Part shown: positions 21,321 through 22,876 of the stretch, piece after piece
Layout: each line of letters begins with the position of its first letter
Numbering within the stretch: the stretch's first letter is position 1
DNA from: an uncultured bacterium
GTDB lineage: Bacteria > Omnitrophota > Omnitrophia > Omnitrophales > Abzuiibacteriaceae
DNA length: 64,000 nt
Assembly (NCBI GenBank): GCA_964387845.1
Contig: CAYLXA010000013.1
Span: 1 to 64,000 of the forward strand
Direction of reading: 5' to 3'
Made by a program: the position numbers and the translations under genes
The notes under the pieces: model-generated
What the model was told of the DNA's origin: nothing
The model's input: only the letters and a program-made list of their open reading frames with translations
The model's database searches: none

Positions 21321-21393
21321 AGTTGTAAGTTTTAAGTTATAAGTGCTAAGTAAATCGAACTACTTACCACTTACAACTTATCACTTAACACTT
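21321..21393. repeat. GTAAGT-heptad hairpin R1 (atpD-atpC intergenic)
   Basis: Left arm of nnTAAGT heptads (21321-21352), right arm of inverted heptads (21361-21393). Confidence 0.7.
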
Positions 21394-21395
21394 GG

Positions 21396-22787
21396 TTACG
21401 ACTCTTTCTTCATTTTTTCAGCGTTTTCAAGAACATCTTCAATGCCGCCTGCCATAAAGAAAGCTTGCTCCGGAATGTGATCGAGTTCGCCGCTTGCTAC
21501 CATCTTGAAACCGCGGATGGTATCGGCAACACGGACATATTTGCCTTTGCGGCCCGTAAATTGTTCTGCAACGGAGAAAGGTTGCGACAAGAACTTTTCG
21601 ATTTTCCGGGCACGCATGACGATCGCTTTGTCTTCAGGCGAAAGTTCGTTAATACCCAGAATCGCAATAATATCGCGAAGATCTTTATAACGTTGAAGAA
21701 TTTTCTGCACAAGACGCGCCGTATCGTAATGATCTTGGCCAACCACGCGCGGATCAAGCATTCTCGATGTTGAATCGAGCGGATCGACAGCCGGATAAAT
21801 TCCGAGTTCTGCAATTTGACGCGAAAGCACCGTAATACCGTCCAAATGCGAGAAGGTAGTGGCAGGCGCAGGATCCGTCAAGTCGTCGGCCGGAACGTAA
21901 ATGGCCTGCACGGACGTAATCGAGCCCGATTTTGTCGAAGTGATGCGTTCTTGGAGTTCGCCCATCTCGGTGCCGAGCGTTGGCTGATAACCGACAGCAG
22001 AAGGCATGCGGCCTAAGAGCGCCGACACTTCCGAACCGGCTTGTACGAAACGGAAAATATTATCAACGAAGAGCAGAACATCTTGATGCGCTTCATCACG
22101 GAAGTGTTCGGCCATTGTGAGGCCTGAGAGAGCGACGCGCAAACGGGCTCCCGGCGGCTCGTTCATCTGCCCGAACACAAGCGCGGTTTTCTTCACAACA
22201 CCAGATTCGTTCAGTTCAAGCCAAAGATCGTTTCCTTCACGGGTTCTTTCGCCGACACCGCAGAAAACCGATACGCCGCCGTGCTCTGTGGCAATGTTAT
22301 GAATGAGCTCCATAACAACGACCGTTTTTCCGACTCCGGCACCACCGAATAATCCGACTTTTCCGCCTTTGGCATAAGGCGCCAAAAGATCGATGACTTT
22401 GATGCCGGTTTCTAAAATTTGAGAAACGGGGTTCAAATCGTCAAAATGGGGAGGTGCTCTGTGAATCGGGCTCTTTTTAGCTGTAATTTTTTGAGTATTT
22501 CCATCAATCGCATCACCCAAAAGGTTAAAAATACGCCCAAGCGTCTGTTCGCCGACCGGGACGCTGATCGGAGCGCCGGTATCGGTTGCTTTCATGCCGC
22601 GCACTAAGCCGTCTGTAGATGCTAAAGCGACGCAGCGGACGACATTGTCGCCAATATGCTGTGCGGCTTCGAGTGTGAGGTTTTTTTCTTCGATTTTGAT
22701 CGCGTTAAATAATTTAGGCAATTCGTTGGCTTCAAAACGAATATCAACGCTAGGCCCGATGACTTGTACAATTTTTCCTACTCCCAT
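21396..22787 (-). CDS. atpD: F1 ATP synthase beta subunit
   Basis: [10 protein letters not shown]-loop, DELSEED-like region, 463 aa. Confidence 0.97.
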
Positions 22788-22805
22788 GTTCTCTTCTCCA
22801 TTCGA

Positions 22806-22876
22806 GTCGTAAGTTGTAAGTGGTAAGTTGTAAGTTTAAATCTTTTACTTACAACTTATAACTTATGACTTACAAC
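22806..22876. repeat. GTAAGT-heptad hairpin R2 (atpG-atpD intergenic)
   Basis: gtcGTAAGTtGTAAGTgGTAAGTtGTAAGT, loop, then an inverted copy ACTTAC... over 22847-22876. Confidence 0.7.

Follow-up and report, generated by a model that had tools for sequence, protein, structure and literature searches.

The nature of the intervening sequences (IVSs) of rRNA genes and the function of the S23p/IVP protein have been an open question since the early 1990s, in part because work on them has treated them solely as peculiarities of rRNA genes. The IVS in the 23S rRNA of Coxiella burnetii contains an S23p ORF (Warrier et al. 2016, PMC4990558), and incorporates GACAGAT heptamers in its 28-bp stem, with two or three tandem copies, depending on the strain, located upstream of the ORF (PMC4990558). 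RNase III cuts within this stem, at the first repeat, and the excised RNA is quickly degraded, while IVSs without an ORF are known in Salmonella (PMC4990558). RNase III can also bind and cut transcribed hairpins of the Correia type, by which the expression of adjacent genes can be altered (PMC2649163, PMC2229807). Here, hairpins with inverted arms of tandem heptads, with and without an IVP gene, are described from the protein-coding operons of an uncultured bacterium of the phylum Omnitrophota, within a window comprising the whole stretch of DNA analysed (64,000 nucleotides; positions 1 to 64,000 of contig CAYLXA010000013.1).

The atp operon of the window is encoded on the minus strand, with the gene order atpBEFHAGDC, and the two spacers flanking atpD are almost entirely occupied by hairpins without an ORF (Table 1), with R1 making up nearly all of the 86-nt atpD-atpC gap and R2 nearly all of the 92-nt atpG-atpD gap. 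Each arm comprises four to five NNTAAGT heptads, which are arranged head-to-tail with a period of 7 (Tandem Repeats Finder) in intergenic DNA, and the loops of both hairpins are 10 nt long. Folding of the mRNA (minus) strand yielded -31.3 kcal/mol (z -7.6) for R1 and -31.0 kcal/mol (z -6.3) for R2, with no shuffled sequence equalling either value. The stem of R1 ends 11 nt upstream of the ATG of atpC, that of R2 starts 1-4 nt downstream of the atpG stop codon, and the Shine-Dalgarno of atpD (GGAG) is situated directly outside the R2 stem, while atpC has no Shine-Dalgarno in either the window or its relatives. An earlier note on this DNA, made from the sequence alone, had described inverted heptad hairpins in both gaps around atpD and their close proximity to the atpG stop and the atpC start; sequence, period, unit number and distances all bear this out, and the folding that it proposed as a check gave stable structures. 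Its statement that five of the seven positions in each heptad are paired holds approximately, as across 21 heptad hairpins (18 from other genomes and three from the window) the TAAGT/ACTTA core is Watson-Crick paired at 89 % of positions, against 55 % for the two variable positions (43.5 % after shuffling). The periodic 2-nt internal loops that it described do exist but are not strictly regular, as around half of the variable dinucleotides in R1 and R2 are paired, leaving 2x2 internal loops at some heptad boundaries but not at all of them. That a heptad-periodic stem is unusual is correct with respect to REP elements, but not with respect to rRNA IVSs, for which this design has been documented (PMC4990558). 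Stable stem-loops in intergenic gaps could also represent intrinsic transcription terminators or attenuators within the operon. However, the stems are AT-rich, no U-tract occurs in the sequence downstream of R2 (GACUCGAAUG) or R1 (AACUAAUUG), a scan for terminator and promoter consensus sequences around both hairpins revealed no site, and the genes located downstream code for essential ATP synthase subunits, so that this explanation is barely credible.

Table 1. Heptad-repeat elements in the window and the atp genes adjacent to R1 and R2
Feature	Coordinates	Strand	Details
atpC	21043-21309	minus	
R1, ORF-less heptad hairpin, atpD-atpC spacer	21319..21394	minus	arms 21319-21351 and 21362-21394; loop 21352-21361
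atpD (F1 beta subunit), bracketed by R1 and R2	21396..22787	minus	Pfam domains on identical gene call; homologues named F0F1 ATP synthase subunit beta, Candidatus Omnitrophota
R2, ORF-less heptad hairpin, atpG-atpD spacer	22803..22878	minus	arms 22803-22836 and 22847-22878; loop 22837-22846
atpG	22880-23749	minus	
R3, third ORF-less GTAAGT-type hairpin	42936..43015	minus	nuo operon spacer, between Complex1_49kDa (nuoD-like) gene and 4Fe-4S gene
Solo arm, five NNTAAGT units	62505..62537	plus	fills spacer between convergent sulfite-reductase-like gene and JAB gene
ORF-containing family member (IVP cassette)	63069..63541	minus	inverted heptad arms 63069-63099 and 63501-63541 around IVP gene 63087-63455

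Searching the window with the three-unit pattern TAAGTNNTAAGTNNTAAGT, and allowing up to two mismatches, retrieved 27 matches where 0.06 were expected on the basis of shuffled sequences. The family in the window consists of the three hairpins R1, R2 and R3, a solo arm and a copy that bears a gene. R3 folds on the minus strand with -30.8 kcal/mol (z -5.5), and the stop codon of the gene upstream of it falls within the first TAAG unit. All arms in the window draw on a common small set of variable dinucleotides, with the pair TGTAAGT-GGTAAGT occurring frequently, and the order of the units is not the same from arm to arm. In the gene-bearing copy the two inverted arms are 402 nt apart and 84 % complementary. 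The gene between them, which is an IVP gene and not a RAYT, encodes a four-helix-bundle protein of 122 aa (PF05635, E 1.7e-41; TIGR02436, E 3e-38) with homologues in the PDB (2GSC and 2RLD), and its final codons and stop codon are supplied by the 3' arm. When the whole 496-nt cassette is folded, the minimum free energy (MFE) structure forms the terminal heptad stem. This is the architecture of the Coxiella IVS, and since IVSs devoid of an ORF exist in Salmonella, R1 and R2 are best regarded as ORF-less IVS-type hairpins in mRNA spacers. The solo arm could pair with the far arm of the cassette (63501-63541) in a minus-strand transcript. A JAB-domain gene (62532-63068) lies between the solo arm and the same-sense cassette arm 63069-63099, and pairing of the far arm with one or the other of these would enclose either the IVP gene alone or both the IVP and JAB genes. 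In the MFE fold of the cassette, the IVP Shine-Dalgarno (AAGGAGGG) pairs with a CCCUCC located upstream (63455-63510), which suggests that in the modelled structure IVP translation would be masked pending remodelling or cutting of the RNA. At Rfam gathering thresholds, the sole match in the window is an nhaA-I riboswitch (35380-35433, minus strand; 44.1 bits against a gathering score of 37), with no rRNA detected and none of the hairpins matching a curated RNA family.

The association between IVP genes and inverted arms was surveyed in 80 metagenomic loci encoding proteins related to that of the window at 43-72 % identity, which represent one subfamily, and 75 distinct genes from these could be evaluated. 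Of the IVP genes, 35/75 are flanked at both ends by inverted arms no more than 40 nt away, as are 2/164 controls (Fisher p 1e-18), with the window atpD being one of the two controls that passed. The arms are tandemly periodic in 33 of these 35 cases, with periods of 7 (21 cases), 8 (seven), 9 (four) and 10 (one), and heptad-type arms typically comprise three to five units. The unit itself varies by locus, including TAAGT, TAAGG, TAAGC, CGAGT, TCGAAGG, TAGCT, TAGGTG and others. As it changes gradually with the divergence of the IVP protein, the gene and its arms appear, from these sequence comparisons, to be inherited together. None of the twenty IVP loci with heptad arms that were inspected matched an rRNA model, or any other Rfam family at gathering thresholds. 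The IVP gene is in the same orientation as its upstream neighbour in 55/63 cases and as its downstream neighbour in 46/57. Mimicry of the Shine-Dalgarno or anti-Shine-Dalgarno by the arms was discarded as an idea, as many motifs, among them TCAGCTG and GAGTTGC, do not fit.

The hairpins furthermore display a fixed polarity, with the TAAGT arm coming first in 36/37 inverted pairs (36:1), and G exceeding C in the 5' arms of 28/31 informative IVP cassettes. As a palindrome is identical on both strands, this asymmetry must be a property of the single-stranded hairpin itself. The TAA within a 7-nt unit produces stop codons in all three frames inside three units, and R1, R2 and R3 all have such three-frame stops in their 5' arms, as do 17/33 cassette 5' arms versus 5/33 of the 3' arms, which would provide a plausible reason for the tolerance of TAAGT-first polarity beside genes. 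Conservation of the five core positions far beyond what pairing requires, and the parallel drift of motif and IVP sequence across loci, would also be accommodated if the arms were arrays of UAAGU/TAAGT sites recognised specifically by a protein that binds RNA or DNA, either a translational regulator or the IVP pentamer itself, with pairing being secondary. IVP homologues are pentameric, nucleic-acid-binding relatives of Avd (PMC10053308), and protein binding has been proposed by MacGregor for the TAACTGA heptamers (PMC4679880). However, the arms are always placed such that they can pair, their length of ~25-35 nt suits a double-stranded RNA substrate, and only 3/119 of the GTAAGT loci from other genomes, among the matches listed, include an IVP gene in the sampled flank. 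On the basis of these sequence patterns, an array of protein-binding sites is very improbable.

A search for three consecutive GTAAGTN units across species-representative genomes identified at least 119 loci, which among the matches listed belong to the Bacteroidota, Patescibacteria, Acidobacteriota, Elusimicrobiota, Chloroflexota, Cyanobacteria, Proteobacteria, Firmicutes, Planctomycetota and Omnitrophota. In two MAGs, one of the Elusimicrobiota (L006) and one of the Dysgonomonadaceae (L063), inverted GTAAGT arms directly enclose an IVP homologue, and the genome of a relative of the window with 96 % atpD protein identity carries an IVP gene between CGTAAGT arms (L208). Among the matches listed, one-directional arrays of up to 28 units occur as well as hairpins. 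These arrays, together with the differences in unit order between arms, are consistent with heptanucleotide microsatellites of the STRR/LSSR type that have grown in place by replication slippage, for which neither mobility nor an IVP link would be needed and the hairpin would be a by-product. Among the long simple-sequence repeats of bacteria, heptamers are the most frequent, and arrays of them are known from intergenic regions of Cyanobacteria, Bacteroidetes and Beggiatoaceae (PMC4679880). Slippage does not, however, produce an inverted partner arm, and the fixed polarity, the conserved core with two positions free to vary, the spread of the GTAAGT motif over roughly ten phyla among the matches listed, the statistical association with IVP genes and the clean presence or absence at the atp junctions also argue against growth in place, which is therefore judged quite improbable. 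Three loci from other phyla (L020, 6085-6561; L024, 390-857; L029, 3430-3633) show GTAAGT arms around nested arrays of other heptads (GGTAATT, GTGCTCA, GTTGCAG and GGTTCCT), and composite multi-motif elements thus exist. Arrays of three or more GTAAGTN units are also found on 56 viral or giant-virus contigs in IMG/VR (L213-L268). Four of these contigs carry them as hairpins, in each of which the TAAGT arm precedes its inverted partner. None of the 56 contigs has an IVP gene near the array, and a single distant IVP relative was retrieved in the viral search. No clear candidate for a phage vector of the heptad hairpins emerged. A search for decayed IVP remnants in fifteen loops of 45-900 nt between GTAAGT arms scored only three full genes, and an origin of the ORF-less hairpins as deletion derivatives of gene-bearing cassettes, or the reverse, is unproven.

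The atp operon was compared with those in eleven loci from seven other Omnitrophota lineages, the nearest of which have atpD genes only 77-84 % identical in nucleotide sequence to that of the window, placing the comparison above the strain level. Arranged by atpD protein identity to the window, the atpG-atpD and atpD-atpC gaps measure 12 and 9 nt at 98 % (L123 and L124), 125 and 111 nt at 96 % (L121 and L122), 16 and 2 nt (L125) or 12 and 3 nt (L126) at 88 %, 11 and -4 nt at 86 % (L270), 20 and 5 nt at 85 % (L211 and L271), 13 and -1 nt at 84 % (L210), and 16 and -4 nt at 83 % (L212), compared with 92 and 86 nt in the window (100 %). No element is thus present at either of the junctions flanking atpD in six of the seven other lineages (9/11 loci), where the atpG-atpD gap is 11-20 nt and the atpD-atpC gap -4 to 9 nt. 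Compact, translationally coupled junctions are thus the ancestral state, and R1 and R2 are lineage-specific insertions. The sequence TAACGG|ACTCGAATG in L121, when aligned to TAACCGG[R2]ACTCGAATG in the window, resembles an empty site for R2, with a match of only 9-10 nt. No target-site duplication is visible at this one site compared.

In L121 both gaps flanking atpD are filled by hairpins that are unrelated to R1 and R2 (9876-10000 and 11399-11509), which are GC-rich (GTAGGGG...CCCCTAC and TGTCATCCCCGC...GCGGGAATGACA) and fold with -45 and -41 kcal/mol, and in the L121/L122 operon hairpins occur at these two junctions and nowhere else. The independent presence of hairpins at exactly both atpD-flanking junctions in two lineages counts against a selfish insertion and hints at selection, although insertion tolerance may also differ from junction to junction and the lineage sample is small. 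That mRNA stability is segmental in the atp operon of E. coli is well established, as are 3' stabilisers of the REP type, REP elements being known to stabilise upstream mRNA segments. With these precedents, R1 and R2 could be adaptive intra-operon regulators that enclose atpD and cause the beta segment to be stabilised or processed on its own, yielding more beta relative to gamma and epsilon, or reset the atpD-atpC coupling. In agreement with this, of atpG, atpD and atpC only atpD codes for a subunit of which each complex requires three copies, and the stems are strong without being terminators. However, the product of atpA is required at the same stoichiometry as that of atpD, and atpA has no flanking hairpins of this type. 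Furthermore, in most of the other lineages atpD and atpC overlap or lie 2-9 nt apart, and elements of the same type in the window occupy a nuo junction, a spacer between convergent genes and the flanks of a selfish-looking gene. A regulatory adaptation is thus considered unlikely. The earlier note had proposed that the hairpins influence segmental mRNA stability or translational coupling, and had named absence of the elements from these positions in close relatives, with unchanged operon expression, as a result that would count against this; absence is largely what the relatives displayed. An effect on stability or coupling remains plausible, but a dedicated regulatory role is not supported, given the six lineages lacking the elements and the nuo and IVP copies elsewhere.

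Other hairpins and ORFs were also observed in the window. A second family of heptad-periodic hairpins, with the units AAATTCA and AAATATC, is represented at 10966-11050 and 15238-15358, one in the gap between a murA-like gene and rpsP and the other just past the stop codon of a nuoN-like gene (-18.6 and -33.2 kcal/mol, respectively). The hairpin at 15238-15358 is absent from the corresponding site in L123. Unlike this hairpin, the adjacent 27-bp inverted repeat at 15161-15221 (AGAAAGAACCTGTTCT...AGAACAGGTTCTTTCT), which separates convergent genes, recurs in L123 with almost every base retained, and probably represents either a bidirectional terminator or a small RNA. GC-rich hairpins without heptads (GTCATTGCGAG...CTCGCAATGAC) are located at 58256-58349 and 59043-59136 (-41 and -50 kcal/mol), with an Urate_ox_N-like ORF (58413-59042) between them, and represent another family of gene-flanking hairpins. 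A single ORF of 3628 aa extends over 45891-56777 on the minus strand. Also noted was an atpD-containing protein of 705 aa (P0125).

On balance, R1 and R2 are judged, with moderate confidence, to be ORF-less, IVS-type copies of a dispersed hairpin family, which are carried as selfish or near-neutral passengers and are probably cut by RNase III, rather than conserved regulators. The elements would have spread as units, and no transposase, target-site duplication or other mobility signature was noted for them in the 64 kb analysed. Once transcribed in the polycistronic atp mRNA, R1 and R2 would each form a stem of ~30 bp, and by analogy with the rRNA IVSs these stems are most probably RNase III substrates, in which case cutting would sever the atp transcript both upstream and downstream of atpD. 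The 2x2 internal loops might prevent cleavage or shift its position, and stems left uncut would behave as stable stem-loops. The insertions may have been tolerated because folding would re-join the upstream stop and the downstream start while leaving the atpD Shine-Dalgarno unobstructed. Folding of R1 would bring the atpD stop near the atpC start, and since atpC has no Shine-Dalgarno, reinitiation could persist after hairpin folding. The 5' arm in addition contributes stop codons in all three frames. Any effect on the stoichiometry of the atp products, which is unproven, would be incidental.

A wider reading can be offered tentatively, and with some doubt. IVP genes with inverted heptad arms may be widespread, unrecognised selfish 'stem-loop cistrons' in transcription units generally, including mRNA operons as well as rRNA, in many phyla, which give rise to hairpins without an ORF, R1 and R2 among them, and whose pentameric IVP protein may recognise its own arms and thereby promote spread or provide shielding against RNase III. 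The IVS design, comprising an inverted tandem-heptad stem with or without an IVP gene, is found here colonising ordinary operons of uncultured phyla, and the fixed polarity, sense orientation and joint drift of motif and protein at these non-rRNA loci provide a far larger comparative data set for the IVS question. In annotation, the family accounts for a class of periodic, AT-rich hairpins at which assemblies break and by which intergenic gaps in essential operons are enlarged, and caution is warranted in treating such periodic hairpins as dedicated regulators.

Several described classes of repeats share features with R1 and R2. Like REP, BIME and REPIN elements (REPINs: PMC3116915), they are multi-copy, extragenic, imperfect palindromes of a kind often placed after stop codons in operons. 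However, REPs are 20-40 nt long, GC-rich, without internal periodicity and linked to RAYTs, whereas the arms of R1 and R2 are AT-rich heptad arrays of a family linked to IVP genes. With Correia (CREE; nemis in Neisseria), ERIC, RUP and BOX elements they have in common that they are short, dispersed, co-transcribed inverted-repeat elements, and as multi-copy elements with terminal inverted repeats that are present or absent between relatives, R1 and R2 are MITE-like. In function, R1 and R2 would likewise resemble Correia elements and the REP stabilisers. The arms of Correia elements, in contrast, are of unique sequence rather than tandem heptads, and Correia elements generate a duplication of their TA target and are able to provide promoters, neither of which is seen at R1 and R2 (for duplication, at the one R2 site compared). 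The STRR and TAACTGA repeats of Beggiatoaceae, Cyanobacteria and Bacteroidetes resemble the present family in being 7-nt intergenic units that often lie beside start or stop codons, in the patchy spread of one unit over distant phyla and in their mixed heptamer arrays (PMC4679880). These are described as direct arrays, and in the Beggiatoa genome 169 sets are direct and one is inverted (PMC4679880), whereas R1 and R2 are of an inverted type with fixed polarity, and an IVP link is not reported for STRR or TAACTGA repeats. The literature searched contained no description of STRR hairpins or of non-rRNA IVP cassettes with heptad stems, and an earlier description elsewhere is possible. From the rRNA IVSs the atp hairpins differ in that the former reside in helices of the 23S or 16S rRNA (helices 9, 25 and 45) and R1 and R2 in atp mRNA spacers, in the lack of an S23p/PF05635 ORF in R1 and R2, in the heptad (NNTAAGT rather than GACAGAT), and in that excision by RNase III is proven for IVSs and extended to R1 and R2 by analogy. 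The likeness to the IVSs of Coxiella and Leptospira 23S rRNA nevertheless extends to the terminal inverted repeats and stems of ~28-35 bp, which are seen in the folds of R1, R2, R3 and the IVP cassette, to the tandem heptamers in the Coxiella stem, which correspond to the period-7 arms of R1 and R2, to the sporadic distribution among relatives, and to the PF05635 gene carried in the loop in sense with the host transcript, as in the cassette of the window.
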